From: Escherichia phage P896
DNA: 64,000 bases
Reading direction: 5' to 3' (one strand)
Sequence record: OL451225.1
Under the pieces are notes generated by a model. The model made no database searches. It saw only the letters and a list, made by a program, of their open reading frames with translations, and was not told the origin of the DNA. The translations under genes were made by a program, and so were the position numbers. This document shows positions 3,419-57,717 of the stretch, one piece after another (the stretch's first letter is position 1; each line of letters opens with the position of its first letter).

Positions 3419-3502
3419 TATATTTTTCCTTATCAATTCATATTGTTTGTATGTTAATTATATCATATTGGTTTAAAGCATAAATACAAGAAAGGAGGAT
3501 GT

Positions 3503-3700
3503 ATGCTCAAACTATCTAGTCTAATTCAAGCCATCAAAGGCAGTCGTAAGCGAACGATTCTGGTCCTTTCGATACTCTGTTTTGTTCTACTCTGGAATTT
3601 CATTGTTGTCCCTATTGCATTGGCACATGGTGTTATATTGCCAGTCGTCGCGCTCGAATCAGTTGTAGATGTTTCACTGGCATTAATCGGCCTTATATAA
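3503..3700 (+). CDS. Small hydrophobic protein (65 aa), plus strand
   Basis: Strong RBS AAGGAGG 7 nt upstream of ATG; two predicted TM segments; only plus-strand ORF with good start signals in this interval. Confidence 0.35.
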   Translation: MLKLSSLIQAIKGSRKRTILVLSILCFVLLWNFIVVPIALAHGVILPVVALESVVDVSLALIGLI

Positions 3701-3808
3701 ATGGAACTTACTGGTTGTGCCTATCGCTGCAACACAAGGGGTGCACTTACCCCAGGTCACAATAGAACATATTCATTCCATCATCGGTTACTTTACCGGA
3801 ATCCCTTC

Positions 3809-35554: not shown

Positions 35555-36565
35555 TTAACGATAATAGGAATTATGGTTGTCAAGATATACCTCTTCAACA
35601 AACTTGTCCCAGAACTTCATGTCCACCTTCGCAGGCATACCGTTCTTAGCAGCCTGAATGGCCAGGACTTCAACTTCATCGACGGTATTTTCCAACAGGC
35701 CTTGGACTACTTTAAAAGGCATATCACCAGCTTTTATTGCTTTAATAACAGAAGCATTTTTAAGCGGATAAACCAAATCGCCGGTTTGATAGATTTCCTT
35801 CAACTGGTATCCAGCACGATAAGCATGGCTCAGAGCTTTCCAGTCAATACCTTCATTGGCTTCTGCCTTACGAGCACGTTCACCATATTCGGCATCGAGC
35901 TTATTCAGAGATTGCTTGAGCTCGATTAAAGACAGGGTGGTTTGGTACTTACGTCCAAGAACAGTATAGAACGTTTGAGGACCTGTTTTCTCGTGGTTAT
36001 GGAATACCCATTCACAGAACTCATTTTCAGGGAGTCTGTGTTTGATATCTTCTACCTTAGTGCGACGTTGCTTAGTCGAACCGTCTTCTTGATAATCGAC
36101 CCACTGTTCAGGAATCTGGTTAACGATTGTCAGTACACCACGCAGTGCAGCCAATCGAGAACCTTTAACACCATATTTGGAAGCTTGCTTACGGACATAC
36201 CCCAAATAGGCTTTCATGTTAGTTGTATAGAACCGCGAACGGTTATCCTGAATAAACTTCCATACATCTGGTAAATCGGATTTGACAACCAGGTCAGCCG
36301 GTGTGTGAATCATGTCCAGGGCAACGGTTTCGCCATCGGCTGCCAGTTTAAAGAAATATTTCAGACTATAAAGTTCATGGTCAACATCATCTTTTGTATT
36401 TTTGGTAGCCGTGTTATTCGTGTTCAGGTTTGTATGGTTCATCGCGGTTCCGAGCAGGATATCTCGCGGATGAGGAACGAAGATTTCTTTAAAATCAACA
36501 TCAGATTCCGGAGTACTTGTTCCATAAAGGTGGGAGCCAAAATATCCCTTCATAACAGTTCTCAT
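35555..36565 (-). CDS. Pol-beta-superfamily nucleotidyltransferase-fold protein (336 aa)
   Basis: N-terminal GYFGSHLYGTSTPESDVDF = G[SG]-x9-13-DxD NTase signature; ATGA-coupled to upstream multi-TM gene. Confidence 0.6.
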   Translation of the reverse strand: MRTVMKGYFGSHLYGTSTPESDVDFKEIFVPHPRDILLGTAMNHTNLNTNNTATKNTKDDVDHELYSLKYFFKLAADGETVALDMIHTPADLVVKSDLPDVWKFIQDNRSRFYTTNMKAYLGYVRKQASKYGVKGSRLAALRGVLTIVNQIPEQWVDYQEDGSTKQRRTKVEDIKHRLPENEFCEWVFHNHEKTGPQTFYTVLGRKYQTTLSLIELKQSLNKLDAEYGERARKAEANEGIDWKALSHAYRAGYQLKEIYQTGDLVYPLKNASVIKAIKAGDMPFKVVQGLLENTVDEVEVLAIQAAKNGMPAKVDMKFWDKFVEEVYLDNHNSYYR

Positions 36566-49158: not shown

Positions 49159-50118
49159 TTATTTTGTGAAAGGACGAATTAAATGTTGGTTAGCCTTAAA
49201 GCGTTTAACATAGTCTTCGCGACCCAGGGTGTTGTACATATTAACCACTTCCTGGTAATGTTCCCAGGCATACTCGCGGAACCATCCAGAAGTAATGGAG
49301 GTACAGACTTTTTCCAGCGCAATATGGAAGCTCACAGATGGAGAGATATTGAACTCATTAGGAACCTGCGAACGCTCCAGAGCGAGCACACATGCTTCTT
49401 CATAAACCCCTGCCAGTTTAATAATCTCAGGGAGTGCTTCAAATTTTTCACGCGAGGTCATGACTTCTGAATCATCCTTCATATAAAACTTATATGCAGG
49501 CTTATCAGCAAGCGCCACAGCCTCGTGGATGGAGTCATGGTCAAGGGTGTAGATTGTATCATTAAAGAAAGTTTTCTTGCCCACGTCTAGTTTAGGGTGA
49601 CTGTATGACAGTGTTTCTGCCTGACGCTGCAGCATGATTTTCTGCAGTTCATCATTAAGAACAATACCCTTATTGCGAAGGTAATTAATATGACTCATGG
49701 TCTTCAGGAAGAATGGATTGTTCTTCAGGTAACGATGAGACAATTTAATCGCCAGACAAATATCAGGCGTCGCCCAATAGAAACCTGTAAGACGGTCTTT
49801 CTTAATATGATTTTCAGCGTATTTCAAGAGACGATAACTTGAGGTGAAATCTTCGTCTTGAAGCTCACCAGTAATTTCTCGTACGTTGGTCAGGGCACGG
49901 ACAATATAAGCTTCAAAATAGGTTTCTTTGCCATTGTACATACATTTAAAAGCTTGGACATCAGGGTTATCCACAGGAACATGAGCACCGAACATACGTG
50001 CTTTAAAGTGGTTCCAAGAACCCTGGTCAGCGATAAAGTCCCAATCAGAGTTTTCAATTTTCTGACTTTCAATCAGACCAGCGTTATGTAATGCACGAGA
50101 ACCAATAACTAACATCAT
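49159..50118 (-). CDS. Hypothetical protein (319 aa)
   Basis: Long ORF, no motif recognised. Confidence 0.65.
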   Translation of the reverse strand: MMLVIGSRALHNAGLIESQKIENSDWDFIADQGSWNHFKARMFGAHVPVDNPDVQAFKCMYNGKETYFEAYIVRALTNVREITGELQDEDFTSSYRLLKYAENHIKKDRLTGFYWATPDICLAIKLSHRYLKNNPFFLKTMSHINYLRNKGIVLNDELQKIMLQRQAETLSYSHPKLDVGKKTFFNDTIYTLDHDSIHEAVALADKPAYKFYMKDDSEVMTSREKFEALPEIIKLAGVYEEACVLALERSQVPNEFNISPSVSFHIALEKVCTSITSGWFREYAWEHYQEVVNMYNTLGREDYVKRFKANQHLIRPFTK

Positions 50119-50309
50119 AATATTTTCCTCATTAGTAAAGACGAGTTACTTCATATTTTCCAAGTGCCGATTTTTTCGCTTCAATTCGTGAGGCAGCAAG
50201 ATTGGCGGCCTCTAGTGAAGAAAATTGAACCACTTGAGAAGTATTCTGTCTTACTCCACCTTGCGGGTGAGTGACAAAAACAATAAGAACATTATACATA
50301 ATATTTTCC

Positions 50310-50510
50310 TCAAATAATACCGTATGCGTAAATATCTCTTTTAATGCAGGAAACTACTTCTTCCAGAGAATCACAAACACGTTCTGTGACGCCTGCGTAA
50401 TCACCACTGATGGTTACTTTAATGCCATCAGAAACTTCCTGGAGATTAACCTCCAGTTGGTTGACTTTGGCTTCGTTCAGAACTTTGATTAATTCGTTTG
50501 CGATAGACAT
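50310..50510 (-). CDS. Hypothetical protein (66 aa)
   Basis: ORF track. Confidence 0.45.
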   Translation of the reverse strand: MSIANELIKVLNEAKVNQLEVNLQEVSDGIKVTISGDYAGVTERVCDSLEEVVSCIKRDIYAYGII

Positions 50511-50574
50511 TTTTATTCTCCTGTTCTGATAACGTGATTGTCATCAGTTGATAGGAGTATAGTAACACAGTTTT

Positions 50575-50919
50575 TTAGACTTGTATACTGCTTCTACAAT
50601 ATTCTAAAAATAATTTATCGTTGTCTACCGTATCCCAACGACGCCAAGATGGATTCCAGACCAGAGCGTTGTCACCGCAATCATTGAGCTTAAAATGGTC
50701 GTAGTACATAGCTATATGTCTGGTTTCGTCACCAGAGAACCCCAGTATAGGCTCACCGTGAGTATGATACATATGATGATGCATTGAGAGGTCGCATTTG
50801 TAAAACATCTCACGTTTACCACGAACGAACAAGAAGGCTTGCCCATTCATATAGAATTCTTTATCTGTTTTCAAAAGATATTTGAATACCGAATCTTTAT
50901 GCATAATTCCTCCTACCAC
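50575..50919 (-). CDS. His-rich protein (114 aa), possible metal-binding
   Basis: HHHMYHTHGEPILGFSGD cluster. Confidence 0.5.
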   Translation of the reverse strand: MVGGIMHKDSVFKYLLKTDKEFYMNGQAFLFVRGKREMFYKCDLSMHHHMYHTHGEPILGFSGDETRHIAMYYDHFKLNDCGDNALVWNPSWRRWDTVDNDKLFLEYCRSSIQV

Positions 50920-50934
50920 ATCCTTGTGATTAAA

Positions 50935-51162
50935 TTATTTTCCTAACGAAATGCGAGTAGGTTTTTTACCGAAATATTCTTCATAGGAACCATCTAAACG
51001 ACCCGCTTTAGACCGACAATACGAATCATACTTTTTGTAATAAGCCAACTCGGTATTGTAACGTGGATGTCTATCAGCCATAATAATACTTAACGGCCAA
51101 CCTTTGGCGTAATCACGAAGACCATTTATTTTACGAATATATCTTTTCTTTAATTTTAACAT
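50935..51162 (-). CDS. Hypothetical basic protein (75 aa)
   Basis: ORF track. Confidence 0.45.
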   Translation of the reverse strand: MLKLKKRYIRKINGLRDYAKGWPLSIIMADRHPRYNTELAYYKKYDSYCRSKAGRLDGSYEEYFGKKPTRISLGK

Positions 51163-51389
51163 GAACTTGGGTACCAGATTTTACCATCGGCACTAGCAAC
51201 GAAGGTGCGACCAGCTTCTTCCCCATAACAAGAGCTGTTCAACCAGTCTTCAAGACGGACTTCGCCGTCATAATCATCAAGCTCAACACCAAAATCTTGA
51301 GCAGAAGCCATATCTTTTACTTTCTTATACAGTGCAGCCAGTTCAAGGGCGGCTTTTTCTAATTCAGCACGTTCAACAGCAGTAGTCAT
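51156..51389 (-). CDS. Hypothetical protein (77 aa)
   Basis: ORF track. Confidence 0.45.
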   Translation of the reverse strand: MTTAVERAELEKAALELAALYKKVKDMASAQDFGVELDDYDGEVRLEDWLNSSCYGEEAGRTFVASADGKIWYPSSC

Positions 51390-51398
51390 TTTATCACC

Positions 51399-51626
51399 TT
51401 AGCAAGACATAGAGGAGTTAAACCAGAAACCTTTACCATCTGGGATACCGTAATCACCACGAATCCAGTCATACTCTTCGTATTCTGGACAACCCGCAGG
51501 AATATATCGTTGAAGACTGTCAGCATACACATGAAAGTATTCACCAGTTTTATCGGCCAGTTGTTCACCTTCACAGATTAGTGCACGGATTTGGTCTTCA
51601 ATTTCTTTAACAGTTTTAGCAGTCAT
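51399..51626 (-). CDS. Small protein, W-x-S-S-x-x-C C-terminal family member 1 (75 aa)
   Basis: C-terminus GFWFNSSMSC. Confidence 0.55.
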   Translation of the reverse strand: MTAKTVKEIEDQIRALICEGEQLADKTGEYFHVYADSLQRYIPAGCPEYEEYDWIRGDYGIPDGKGFWFNSSMSC

Positions 51627-51635
51627 TTTATTTCC

Positions 51636-51833
51636 TTAGCATTCATAAGAGGAGGACACCCAGGAGCCACCCGTAATTGTAATACAGCCATTGTAAATCG
51701 TGATATGACGGTCCAGATGGTTTTCACCTTCGATATAGATATCAGCTTCTTCACGCTCTTCTTTACAAATCTGGATAACGTTTTCAATAGCTGCCGCGGC
51801 AGTACGGATTGCACAATCTAGTTCACGAGACAT
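51636..51833 (-). CDS. Small protein, W-V-S-S-S-x-x-C family member 2 (65 aa)
   Basis: C-terminus GGSWVSSSYEC. Confidence 0.55.
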   Translation of the reverse strand: MSRELDCAIRTAAAAIENVIQICKEEREEADIYIEGENHLDRHITIYNGCITITGGSWVSSSYEC

Positions 51834-51842
51834 AATAATTCC

Positions 51843-52124
51843 TTAACATTCAGCAGAAGAGGACACCCAACCACCATTTTCCAGGTCAGTTGTATAGTCA
51901 TGAGTATTAACAATAGCCCATTCAGGATGACCATGTTCTTCCCAATGAGCAAGGTCAGCTTTCAGGGCACCAGGAGAATAATAGTCACCGCCCATACCGC
52001 GAGCAGGGTATATATTAAAATGAGTCTCATATTTGTCTGCAATTTCCTCGGCACGACGAATAGCTTTATGGATGTCATTTACTGCGTTAGCCAGTTCTTT
52101 ATTTTTACGGTAATCATTCATCAT
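51843..52124 (-). CDS. Small protein, W-V-S-S-S-x-x-C family member 3 (93 aa)
   Basis: C-terminus NGGWVSSSAEC. Confidence 0.55.
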   Translation of the reverse strand: MMNDYRKNKELANAVNDIHKAIRRAEEIADKYETHFNIYPARGMGGDYYSPGALKADLAHWEEHGHPEWAIVNTHDYTTDLENGGWVSSSAEC

Positions 52125-52133
52125 AACGTTTCC

Positions 52134-52424
52134 TTAGCACATTGCCGAAGAGGAGACCCAAGCACCAACTGTAACGACACCGTTTTCAACTTCACCGCCG
52201 TTGTTTTCAATTTCATTTTTAAACCACTGGGAGCATTCATAACCGACAGGATAATATGTACGGCCCGAACCATAATCACCGGTACCAAATTGGATACCAT
52301 ATTCATCTGCGATTTCTTCACAGTGTTTTTCAATTTCAGAGGTCTTATTTAGAAGAGAATAGATAGCTTTTTCTGCAGATTTCTCATCATAATACTTGGG
52401 GATAGCAATTTCAATTTTATTCAT
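52134..52424 (-). CDS. Small protein, W-V-S-S-S-x-x-C family member 4 (96 aa)
   Basis: C-terminus VGAWVSSSAMC. Confidence 0.55.
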   Translation of the reverse strand: MNKIEIAIPKYYDEKSAEKAIYSLLNKTSEIEKHCEEIADEYGIQFGTGDYGSGRTYYPVGYECSQWFKNEIENNGGEVENGVVTVGAWVSSSAMC

Positions 52425-52774
52425 GATTTACATTCCTTAATAAAGGTTTCAAGTTCATTGCGTTTTGTTTTGTCTAGGAACTTATTATACTCAGCCATTG
52501 CTGAAGCATATCTCTTCCGACTAGGAGCATTCACGGCATTTGTGTGACAGATATCATACACAACAGGGATAAAATAAGACACAACAGCCGGAGCGATTAT
52601 CATAAAGAAGCCCATCTCAATAGGCATCACTCCCTCGATTGCAGCCATAACCGTGGTCATTACCAGGCCAACCAGGCCGCCAAGCATGGCGGTGACAATC
52701 CCTAATAATAAATTGGCACCAATATCATATTCAGCCAATTGATAAACATGTGATGCAAGACTAGGCCGTTCCAT
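52421..52774 (-). CDS. Membrane protein (~117 aa) with C-terminal ETFIKECKS
   Basis: Start at MERPSL with AGGAGG RBS; TM helices. Confidence 0.55.
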   Translation of the reverse strand: MERPSLASHVYQLAEYDIGANLLLGIVTAMLGGLVGLVMTTVMAAIEGVMPIEMGFFMIIAPAVVSYFIPVVYDICHTNAVNAPSRKRYASAMAEYNKFLDKTKRNELETFIKECKS

Positions 52775-53120
52775 TACGAACCTCCTTAATAAATTCTTCG
52801 GCGCATTTAATTTTGTGCTCTTCTTGTAGGGAAACACATTTTTGTTCCCACTCTTTAACTCGTCCACGATATCCTTTATTCATATGATTTTGATGCCACA
52901 CATTTATCAATACCATACACAGGACTGTAATAAAAGGAGCTGCAATTACTAGCGTCCAGGCGACTCCAACACTAATGATATTCATATCCCCACAAAGCAC
53001 CATCATTATAACCCCAACGATGCACATGGACAAAGCTCCAAATGGAGGCATAAGGTCTTTATCAATCTTGTCTGCGTATACAAATTTTTCTGGTTTACTT
53101 GGCAGATATAACGTTCGCAT
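52761..53120 (-). CDS. Membrane protein (~119 aa) with C-terminal EEFIKEVRNG
   Basis: Start at MRTLYL with AAGGGG RBS; TM helices. Confidence 0.55.
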   Translation of the reverse strand: MRTLYLPSKPEKFVYADKIDKDLMPPFGALSMCIVGVIMMVLCGDMNIISVGVAWTLVIAAPFITVLCMVLINVWHQNHMNKGYRGRVKEWEQKCVSLQEEHKIKCAEEFIKEVRNGTA

Positions 53121-53667
53121 TTTTAACCCCTTTAGCATATTCACGACATTCAGCAATAAAACGATTAAGCTTACGTTTCCGTTTACGACTCTCTAATGTG
53201 TACTCAGCCGCCAAATCAAGAAGCTCATCTTTATCATAATTTTTAATATCAGTATAAGTTGGGCGGCGGTCAACCATTCCAAAGTGGTCACCATTTTCCA
53301 ACATCAAATAACACACCAAATGGTCATCATCGTTCGCATTAATAAGTTGCCTATAATCATCTGGGTCATTTAACGCATACACGGAATAACTCAGCCCACC
53401 GAATTCCACTCGTTGAATACCTAGATTTACATCAATAATTTCCAAGGCATCTGCAAAAGAAAGGTCTTCAGCTAAAGCAAAAATAAAAGGCAATTTTGTA
53501 GTATCACCGCGGCTAGTTGTTCTTCTTAAGAAATCATTGGAATAACCCAAGTCACCGCGGATTCTATAAAGAACTGTGTTAGTTTCAGTGGCAAGACCAC
53601 TACCGCCAAACCAGTCTACATTTGATAGAAGGTCAGTATATAAGCTCATAATTTTCTCCTCTCCCAA
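53095..53667 (-). CDS. Hypothetical protein (190 aa) with C-terminal RFIAECREY
   Basis: ORF track; GGGGC-AAAG-CCCCC hairpin upstream. Confidence 0.55.
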   Translation of the reverse strand: MGEEKIMSLYTDLLSNVDWFGGSGLATETNTVLYRIRGDLGYSNDFLRRTTSRGDTTKLPFIFALAEDLSFADALEIIDVNLGIQRVEFGGLSYSVYALNDPDDYRQLINANDDDHLVCYLMLENGDHFGMVDRRPTYTDIKNYDKDELLDLAAEYTLESRKRKRKLNRFIAECREYAKGVKNANVISAK

Positions 53668-53692
53668 TTAGGGGGCAAAGCCCCCTTTTATC

Positions 53693-57564: not shown

Positions 57565-57641
57565 TGGTCGGGGTGGTGGGATTCTAACCCACAACCTACG
57601 GTTTAGAAGACCGTTGCTCTATACAATTAAGCTACACCCCG
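57565..57641 (-). tRNA. tRNA-Arg (anticodon TCT), CCA encoded
   Basis: Cloverleaf read by eye: acceptor CGGGGTG/CACCCCG, anticodon arm ACGGT-CTTCTAA-ACCGT, T arm GTGGG-TTAGAAT-CCCAC. Confidence 0.7.
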
Positions 57642-57643
57642 GG

Positions 57644-57717
57644 TGGCCCCATCCGGACTTGAACCGGAAACCTGCCAGTTATGAGCCGGATGCTCTAACC
57701 AATTGAGCTACAGGGCC
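57644..57717 (-). tRNA. tRNA with CAT anticodon (Ile-lysidine type as in T4, or Met)
   Basis: Acceptor GGCCCTG/TGGGGCC, D arm GCTC-AATTGGTTA-GAGC, anticodon loop CTCATAA, T arm TCCGG-TTCAAGT-CCGGA; directly abuts tRNA-Arg. Confidence 0.8.

Follow-up and report, generated by a model that had tools for sequence, protein, structure and literature searches.

Small acidic proteins with a conserved C-terminal tail are genetically linked to a predicted MenT-like nucleotidyltransferase in Escherichia phage P896 and in unrelated phages

The 64,000-nucleotide stretch of Escherichia phage P896 DNA analyzed here (OL451225.1), called the window below and the source of all P896 coordinates, carries on its minus strand a tandem array of genes for small acidic proteins that share a C-terminal tail of the type W-x-S-S-S-x-x-C. 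In every lineage examined, members of this family adjoin a homolog of a 319-amino-acid open reading frame (ORF) of the window that is predicted to encode a nucleotidyltransferase (NTase) of the Pol-beta superfamily (Table 1). This linkage is the main clue to the function of the small proteins, and we regard a functional partnership with the NTase as likely. The reading that we favor, at roughly even chances, is that the small proteins are cognate partners of the NTase, most likely antitoxin-like regulators that engage the enzyme via the tail. The first-pass annotation of this DNA, made from the sequence alone, described the array and missed its conserved linkage to the MenT-like NTase gene, which lies about 1 kb downstream.

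Linkage of the small-protein family to a nucleotidyltransferase gene

Among T4-like genera, the pairing was seen in phage SP18 together with the window and in seven others, namely, IME08, RB69, Entb_43, Marfa, PEi20, Serratia phage X20, and an Aeromonas phage, the last of which carries the block between nrdD and nrdC and not in the e.x region. The same pairing recurs in phages unrelated to these, including Pseudomonas Otagovirus phiPsa374, Escherichia Phapecoctavirus ukendt, Shewanella phage Thanatos-2, and Acinetobacter phage Apostate, and it is found also in Ralstonia phage RSP15 and Xanthomonas phage X1. Metagenomic contigs retrieved via distant representatives of the small family have it as well, as do four of five contigs from metagenome-assembled genomes (MAGs). 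In most of the other lineages, the small family directly abuts the NTase gene.

Strict polarity was apparent in a sample of 80 IMG/VR loci centered on the NTase gene, in which an ORF was counted as a member when it matched the family with an E value of ≤1e-3 within 3 kb and on the same strand. At least one member was present at 67 of the 80 loci, and there were 162 members upstream of the NTase gene and 0 downstream. Members numbered one at 24 loci, two at 21, three at 5, four at 2, and five at 15. Of the 13 "empty" loci, 6 still carry upstream ORFs with the tail motif.

The neighboring nucleotidyltransferase

The structure predicted for the window's NTase (predicted local distance difference test [pLDDT] score, 92.1; predicted template modeling [pTM] score, 0.86) comprises an N-terminal α/β domain followed by an all-helical C-terminal domain. 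All seven entries in the table of matches for this model are NTases of the Pol-beta superfamily: the MenT1 toxin (10.1), ANT(2'') (8.7), TglT/Rv1045 (8.6), TM1012 (7.6), MenT4 (7.5), JHP933 (7.4), and LnuA (7.2). Residues G6-S7, D25-x-D27, E69, K125, and R129 are invariant, being kept in essentially all full-length homologs. The protein has the conserved catalytic G-[GS] ... D-x-[DE] pattern, downstream carboxylate, and lysine of a MenT-like fold, and because this expected signature is conserved, we infer that the NTase is probably an active enzyme. At an E value of ≤1, Pfam returned DUF7277 and DUF7275 only, with neither DUF1814/AbiEii nor PF10127; PADLOC gave nothing relevant for the NTase or for AbiE components, and a sequence-profile search of the PDB with the NTase returned no MenT. 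An HD-phosphohydrolase reading of the conserved H and D residues in DUF7275 was rejected, having neither a sequence nor a fold match.

The NTase family, with 731 phage records and more than 2,000 clusters (90% identity, word-indexed search), is broader than the small-protein family. A survey of 185,579 bacterial and archaeal species genomes gave 5 hits, all of them MAG contigs that carry the small partner too or are cut short. This near absence from cellular genomes identifies the pair as a phage module and rules out a chromosomal toxin-antitoxin (TA) cassette of bacteria.

Cys272 of the NTase (motif EKVC-TSITSGWF) is present in all but two of the 102 homologs aligned there (one more is shortened by a contig end), and 94 of the 102 have a small partner or an ORF with the motif tail nearby. 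The cysteine is replaced in the homologs of Streptomyces phage Annadreamy and Vibrio phage K408 (KKTITS and EKTITS, respectively), which are the most divergent short homologs examined and near which no partner was detected. With two cases and a phylogenetic confound, this pattern gives only a hint that Cys272 and the lone cysteine of the partner may act together.

A separate homolog of T4 NrdC.11, an RlaP enzyme, is encoded on the minus strand at 35558-36565 (82% identity over 336 amino acids), so the phage has two different Pol-beta NTases. Homologs of nrdC.1, nrdC.2, nrdC.4, and nrdC.5 are found at about 30.7 to 33.2 kb of the window. In Shewanella phage Thanatos-2, genes for tRNA-Arg and tRNA-Met come immediately after the NTase gene.

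The small-protein family

The four minus-strand ORFs reported in the first-pass annotation as ending in G-x-W-[VF]-[SN]-S-S-x-x-C (paralogs A to D in Table 1) are all present at exactly the positions given, and each tail abuts a TAA stop codon. A fifth member, paralog E, lies directly downstream and had been missed, so the count of four was right for those ORFs and wrong for the total. Endings of the form W..SS.{0,2}C occur in 5 of the 705 stop-to-stop segments of at least 40 amino acids in the window, where about 0.006 would be expected from residue frequencies, and in 0 of 100 shuffles. A family hidden Markov model (HMM) built here detects all five members at E values of ≤3e-11 and finds none besides paralogs A to E in the 64-kb window. 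The phrog_899 profile is significant for four of the five; paralog C falls short there but matches the sister family phrog_4882 strongly (Table 1). Orthologs of paralog A occur in 359 phage records, and pVOGs VOG2412-2415 and VOG3790 also contain the five ORFs; none of these PHROG and pVOG clusters has a function, motif, or NTase link recorded.

The bodies of paralogs A to E are mutually 21 to 36% identical. The earlier picture of divergent, variable bodies carrying a common tag does not hold, since homology extends over the whole domain of about 90 amino acids, which is predicted to fold. When 1.84 billion representative proteins were searched exhaustively with the family profile, a set of 138 clusters (50% identity) was recovered, all of them stand-alone proteins of 65 to 136 amino acids, nearly all of which align through to their own C terminus. 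The consensus over these clusters, ..EAE.[IL]ADE.G..F..GG.YYP..W..G.W.SSS..C, has a shared core formed by a helix and GG-x-YYP, and outside the tail, A41, D42, F48, G52, and Y55 are conserved at 83 to 93%. The exact ending W-x-x-S-S-x-x-C is found in 121 of the 138 clusters, with both serines invariant; 9 clusters have one additional residue past the cysteine, and 4 have two copies of the motif, an architecture that paralog E shares with its counterparts in phages ukendt and Thanatos-2. In 77 clusters there is no cysteine other than that of the tail. The family, which is confined to phages, is strongly acidic, with a median isoelectric point (pI) of 4.5 and 93% of values below 5.5, and paralogs A to E conform to this (pI 4.3 to 5.2; net charge, -7 to -8.5).

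In an AlphaFold2 (AF2) model of the 93-amino-acid paralog B (pLDDT, 85.5; pTM, 0.73), the α/β protein combines a long helix at its N terminus with a small sheet that ends in the strand G-G-W-V-S; the Ser-Ser pair and x-x-C lie past it, and the last three residues have low confidence. This model had no significant structural match in the PDB, and sequence searches with the small proteins gave nothing significant in Pfam, NCBIfam, PADLOC, or PDB sequences. A structural disulfide or metal site within the protein was ruled out, as the terminal cysteine stands alone in those 77 clusters and in paralog B. A whole-genome scan of T4 found neither family, the best match being nrdC.1 (E = 0.3), which lacks the tail; nrdC.3 is unrelated.

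Some published records of family members are irregular. At the RB69 locus 3489-3795, the type A paralog is split into ORF139c (71 amino acids) and ORF138c (33 amino acids as annotated), and the tail reads WVSSPALC; the family aligns with one ORF in its N-terminal part and with the other in its C-terminal part, which indicates a frameshift, due to either a pseudogene or a sequencing error. In phage UPEC07 (locus 555-788, 1244-1699), GenBank calls the type E paralog a "major capsid protein" and the type B region a "tail completion protein," and the NTase homolog of vB_KpnM-VAC36 is annotated as a "prohead assembly scaffold protein"; these capsid, tail, and scaffold labels are evident annotation errors. 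On one metagenomic contig (206-706), the gene directly upstream of a family member has a weak Pfam match to SspB, a ClpXP adaptor.

Selection on the C-terminal tail

The C-terminal similarity could in principle belong to a DNA or RNA element, for example, one in which TCCTC serine codons sequester the Shine-Dalgarno sequence or one that acts as a regulatory site at each gene junction, and indeed the TCC-TCT serine codons of the window could base-pair with TAAGGA, where the stop codon meets the Shine-Dalgarno sequence of the following gene. The codons themselves speak against this. Counted over 49 members in 13 phages, the serine codons of the tail are TCC (35), TCT (67), TCG (3), TCA (14), AGC (13), and AGT (8), such that AGY makes up 21 of 140 codons, and even orthologs of type A differ, with TCC-TCT-TCG in the window, TCA-TCT-AGC in Marfa, and AGT-TCC-TCT in the Aeromonas phage. 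The tail glycine and cysteine codons vary as well, and the peptide motif is kept in several phages that have overlapping stop and start codons in place of the TAAGGA junction.

Proportions of synonymous (pS) and nonsynonymous (pN) differences, obtained by the Nei-Gojobori method, tell the same story. Between close relatives, the tail has a pS of 0.225 and a pN of 0.023 (ratio, 0.10), and the body has a pS of 0.327 and a pN of 0.084 (ratio, 0.26); between genera, the synonymous sites of the tail are saturated (pS, 0.79), with pN still low. RNA folding at the junctions is no better than in shuffled sequences (z-scores, +0.66 to +1.6), and Rfam had no match there. Equal conservation of synonymous sites had been named in the first-pass annotation as the mark of an overlapping regulatory element; the comparison, run here, favors selection on the protein, given the TCN/AGY switches and the tail ratio. 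Together with the loss of the junction and its lack of structure, this refutes a DNA or RNA element, which we now regard as having practically no chance of being correct.

Orthologs of every subtype from A to E occur in Dhakavirus, Marfavirus, and Kanagawavirus, and those of four subtypes occur in Mosigvirus too; the gene order is conserved, which makes the paralogs old. The array had been called diversified; in the arms-race sense this is not borne out, as the bodies are under purifying selection and all five subtypes persist across genera. Recent tandem duplication with diversifying selection is ruled out on the same grounds. What is upheld is the description of a tandem, protein-coding paralog family with a conserved C-terminal tail, selected at the protein level, and we are nearly certain that the family is real and under selection.

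Proposed function and alternative explanations

In the reading that we favor, the array and NTase genes would be cotranscribed from one strand at early or middle times and translationally coupled. The acidic body of each small protein would dock on the NTase, plausibly in its nucleic acid-binding groove and possibly as a nucleic acid mimic. The W-x-S-S-S-x-x-C tail would be the interaction element, with the tryptophan anchoring the last β-strand and the Ser-Ser pair and lone cysteine, on the flexible end, reaching the NTase. Most likely, the small proteins would regulate or inhibit the NTase in the manner of an antitoxin, following the example of MenA1 and MenT1, an NTase toxin acting on tRNA 3' ends. 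Strong acidity argues against an RNA-binding adaptor and for a protein binder or nucleic acid mimic, and the gene order and protein size parallel those of short-antitoxin/NTase-toxin pairs, which favors the antitoxin-like role. We infer a physical interaction, the part played in it by the tail, and the direction of regulation. That the small proteins are specifically noncovalent regulators or inhibitors is a tentative proposal, to which we give somewhat less than an even chance. These findings are compatible with the earlier suggestion that the array encodes inhibitors sharing a conserved tail for recognition.

Several observations weigh against an antitoxin-like partner. In the window itself, the array is separated from the NTase gene by about 1 kb and four unrelated small ORFs; in Xanthomonas phage X1, the candidate partners lie downstream of the NTase gene; and some 8 to 10% of full-length NTase loci have no partner within 3 kb. 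The NTase has no sequence match to DUF1814/AbiEii, and the small partner shows no homology to the known antitoxins MenA1, MenA3, and AbiEi. One inhibitor should be enough, yet five subtypes are conserved across genera, which implies nonredundant roles. An RNA ligase gene is found directly downstream of the NTase homolog in Ralstonia phage RSP15 (3395-4417), with a phosphatase gene nearby, and two genes upstream of the DUF7275 homolog in Streptomyces phage Annadreamy (564-1223); such adjacency hints at a repair enzyme and not a toxin, in which case an "antitoxin" would be unnecessary. Finally, on a forest-soil contig (ENA; 614-1941), a family member whose tail reads GYWHTSSMSC overlaps the stop codon of a 328-amino-acid RlaP (PF10127) gene, which suggests that pairing of the small proteins is not confined to a single NTase family; a C-terminal fragment of DUF7275 lies about 1.4 kb upstream on the same contig, at its edge. 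The RNA ligase neighbors and the RlaP overlap make an RNA or tRNA 3' end plausible as the substrate, and the NTase probably acts on such ends.

The linkage evidence fits equally well with a covalent version of the partnership, in which the NTase would nucleotidylylate or phosphorylate the tail Ser-Ser, with the tail then either mimicking an RNA 3'-OH, as a pseudosubstrate, or working as a carrier or protein primer; by extension, the lone cysteine would possibly pair with Cys272 of the NTase. The model places two invariant hydroxyl residues on what would be an exposed, flexible end, and the doubling of the motif in type E is what a modular acceptor site might look like. Protein AMPylation is carried out by MNT-type NTases (HepT/MntA). 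MenT-type NTases can also phosphorylate an active-site Thr or Ser (PMC11375011). However, the tryptophan and first serine fall within a β-strand of the model, and O-nucleotidylylation leaves the invariant cysteine unexplained, and we think covalent acceptors, with or without the cysteine pairing, unlikely. If they were real, they would make up a phage-specific enzyme/acceptor-protein system of an undescribed kind, which could set the timing with which the NTase attacks or repairs tRNA 3' ends or could act as a decoy for host NTase-based immunity. We hold it to be just as unlikely that the small proteins are specificity adaptors, whose common tail docks on the NTase and whose divergent bodies each select a different target, be it a tRNA, another RNA, or a protein. 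Such adaptors would be in keeping with bodies that vary more than the conserved tail, with a paralog count of one to five per phage, and with the persistence of five subtypes across genera, which implies nonredundant roles, but a median pI of 4.5 is unfavorable for RNA recognition, the small bodies share most of their conserved positions and so leave little surface for distinct targets, and 24 of the 80 IMG/VR loci have a single member.

The small proteins might instead have nothing to do with the NTase, being independent host-takeover or antidefense effectors that merely share its accessory block. The site does fall in an accessory region of T-even-type genomes, e.x/tRNA-proximal, that is plastic and holds many small early genes; the copy number varies; and four unrelated ORFs intervene in the window. 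Set against this are the persistence of the pairing across unrelated phage families and differing neighborhoods, the strict polarity of 162 members upstream and 0 downstream with genes that are usually directly adjacent, and the absence of both genes from T4; we consider independent effectors a shade less probable than either acceptors or adaptors. Least credible among the protein-level alternatives, and in our view very improbable, are precursors resembling ribosomally synthesized and posttranslationally modified peptides (RiPPs), whose conserved tail would be recognized or modified by a peptide-maturation enzyme. Short tandem ORFs with a conserved end containing Ser and Cys recall such precursors, which the first-pass annotation had also raised. 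That idea is not sustained, because the domain is predicted to fold with confidence over its whole length (pLDDT, 85.5), the conserved part is C-terminal and not a leader, and no RiPP maturation enzyme is found nearby, with 0 radical-SAM, YcaO, lanthipeptide, or protease families among the 13 neighboring ORFs; moreover, secretion signals are absent and the proteins are acidic.

Organization of the array and its genomic setting

Positions 50900 to 53200 of the window (2.3 kb queried) are 99.2% identical to Shigella phage SP18, a JS98-like T-even phage of the genus Gaprivervirus, in which the counterparts of the five genes, SP18gp137-141, are all annotated as "hypothetical." The array occupies an accessory block between lysozyme e/nudE/e.2 and e.4/e.6 plus tRNA genes. 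Consecutive array genes are spaced by 9 nucleotides, and the stop codon of each merges into the next ribosome-binding site (TAAGGA...ATG), an overlap that suggests translational coupling as judged from the sequence; this 9-nucleotide layout is not kept in distant phages that retain the peptide motif. A candidate T4-type middle promoter upstream of paralog A recurs in IME08 and dhaeg with its offset unchanged and is absent from three Gaprivervirus relatives, against a chance expectation of about 0.06 per 14 kb. Scans for sigma-70 promoters and terminators gave nothing above chance, and no late promoter was found near the array. The four ORFs between the array and the NTase gene belong to separate PHROGs with no assigned function, and their membership in the module is uncertain.

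Directly upstream of the array, two overlapping genes for predicted membrane proteins (52421-52867 and 52761-53156, minus strand), which are e.3/e.4-like and belong to phrog_2330 and phrog_2604, match each other's profiles and thus form a second tandem paralog pair. Between the e.5-like gene and e.6, positions 53670-53686 hold a perfect GC-rich hairpin (AGGGGGCAAAGCCCCCT); it is terminator-like on the plus strand, and the local genes are on the minus strand. About 5 kb upstream of the array, at 57568-57717 (minus strand), two tRNA genes reach the Rfam gathering score, and SP18 is annotated with tRNA genes for Arg, Asn, and Met there.

Table 1. Positions of the array genes, their junctions, and associated features in the window (aa, amino acids; nt, nucleotides)
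Feature	Position	Strand	Description
Predicted Pol-beta-superfamily NTase	49159..50118	-	319 aa; Pfam DUF7277 + DUF7275; phrog_2141
Four small ORFs between array and NTase gene	50132..51162	-	50935-51162 (75 aa, basic), 50575-50919 (114 aa), 50310-50510 (66 aa), 50132-50299 (55 aa)
Paralog E	51156..51389	-	77 aa; pI 4.3; internal DWLNSSC and terminal IWYPSSC; phrog_899 E=7e-10; family HMM E=3e-11
Paralog D	51399..51626	-	75 aa; pI 4.4; tail GFWFNSSMSC; phrog_899 E=3.5e-15; family HMM E=1e-25
Paralog C	51636..51833	-	65 aa; pI 4.5; tail GSWVSSSYEC; phrog_4882 E=3e-36; phrog_899 E=0.055; family HMM E=9e-17
Paralog B	51843..52124	-	93 aa; pI 5.2; tail GGWVSSSAEC; terminal Cys is the sole cysteine; phrog_899 E=2e-20
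Paralog A	52134..52424	-	96 aa; pI 4.5; tail GAWVSSSAMC; first gene of the array; phrog_899 E=5e-23; family HMM E=2e-30
A/B junction	52125..52133	-	TAA (52134-52136, within paralog A) + GGA = TAAGGA; 9 nt from stop to next ATG
Other 9-nt junctions	51834-51842, 51627-51635, 51390-51398	-	Layout like that of the A/B junction
Candidate T4-type middle promoter	52484..52510	-	MotA box TATGCTTCA, 12 nt, TATAAT; 59 nt upstream of the paralog A ATG

Significance and comparison with known systems

Both families are widespread in T4-like, rV5-like, jumbo, and many uncultivated phages, where annotation goes no further than "hypothetical protein" or a DUF. The pairing joins these two orphan families into one testable module, a phage MenT-like NTase with small tailed partners, and the invariant W-x-S-S-S-x-x-C tail is a direct handle for mutagenesis and mass spectrometry. 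NTases of the MenT/AbiEii type are bacterial toxins or abortive-infection effectors that block tRNA charging, and a phage version with built-in regulators could be a weapon for takeover of host translation; alternatively, the module could be a counterdefense or tRNA-repair device or a mimic that disarms host NTase toxins. Our literature search found no paper on DUF7275, DUF7277, their PHROGs, or the RB69 ORF names and no phage MenT-like module. What appears to be undescribed includes the tail motif, a fifth array member, the polarity of the linkage, and the MenT-like character of the neighboring protein.

One close parallel in outline is the MenA1-MenT1 pair. MenT toxins lengthen tRNA 3' ends and so prevent aminoacylation, and MenA1, a short antitoxin of Mycobacterium tuberculosis, binds with its N-terminal helix across two MenT1 protomers and induces autophosphorylation of the active site (PMC10435456, PMC11375011). 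The phage module likewise combines a short protein having a prominent N-terminal helix with an NTase that conserves the catalytic G-S and D-x-D. The two also differ. The phage NTase is a DUF7277/DUF7275 protein and not DUF1814, and its C terminus is longer by about 150 highly conserved residues; no sequence or fold relation of the small proteins to MenA1 is detectable; they carry the invariant tail and number one to five paralogs, compared to one antitoxin; and the module resides in virulent phages and not in bacterial chromosomes. With AbiEi-AbiEii, a type IV TA system of the DUF1814 class, the module shares the broad fold class of the NTase and, at most of the loci sampled, the upstream position of the partner gene, but AbiEi, a winged-helix regulator of larger size, has no relation to the small proteins, and the PADLOC models match neither component. 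AbiE is also a host defense, whereas the phage module stands on the opposite side.

RlaP enzymes add one or two nucleotides to damaged RNA ends during repair (PMC12776372), and T4 NrdC.11 was placed in this PF10127 family of RNA-repair NTases in a 2025 preprint (PMC12776372, PMC7824862). They resemble the NTase described here in being phage-encoded Pol-beta NTases of similar size; an RNA ligase gene accompanies the DUF7275 gene in RSP15 and Annadreamy, and one metagenomic member of the small family overlaps an RlaP gene. Unlike them, the window's NTase has no PF10127 match and no RNA ligase gene near it in the window, and no small-protein partner has been described for RlaP. The phage module resembles a pair of a small partner and an NTase yet, at the sequence level, stands apart from MenAT/AbiE and from RlaP alike.

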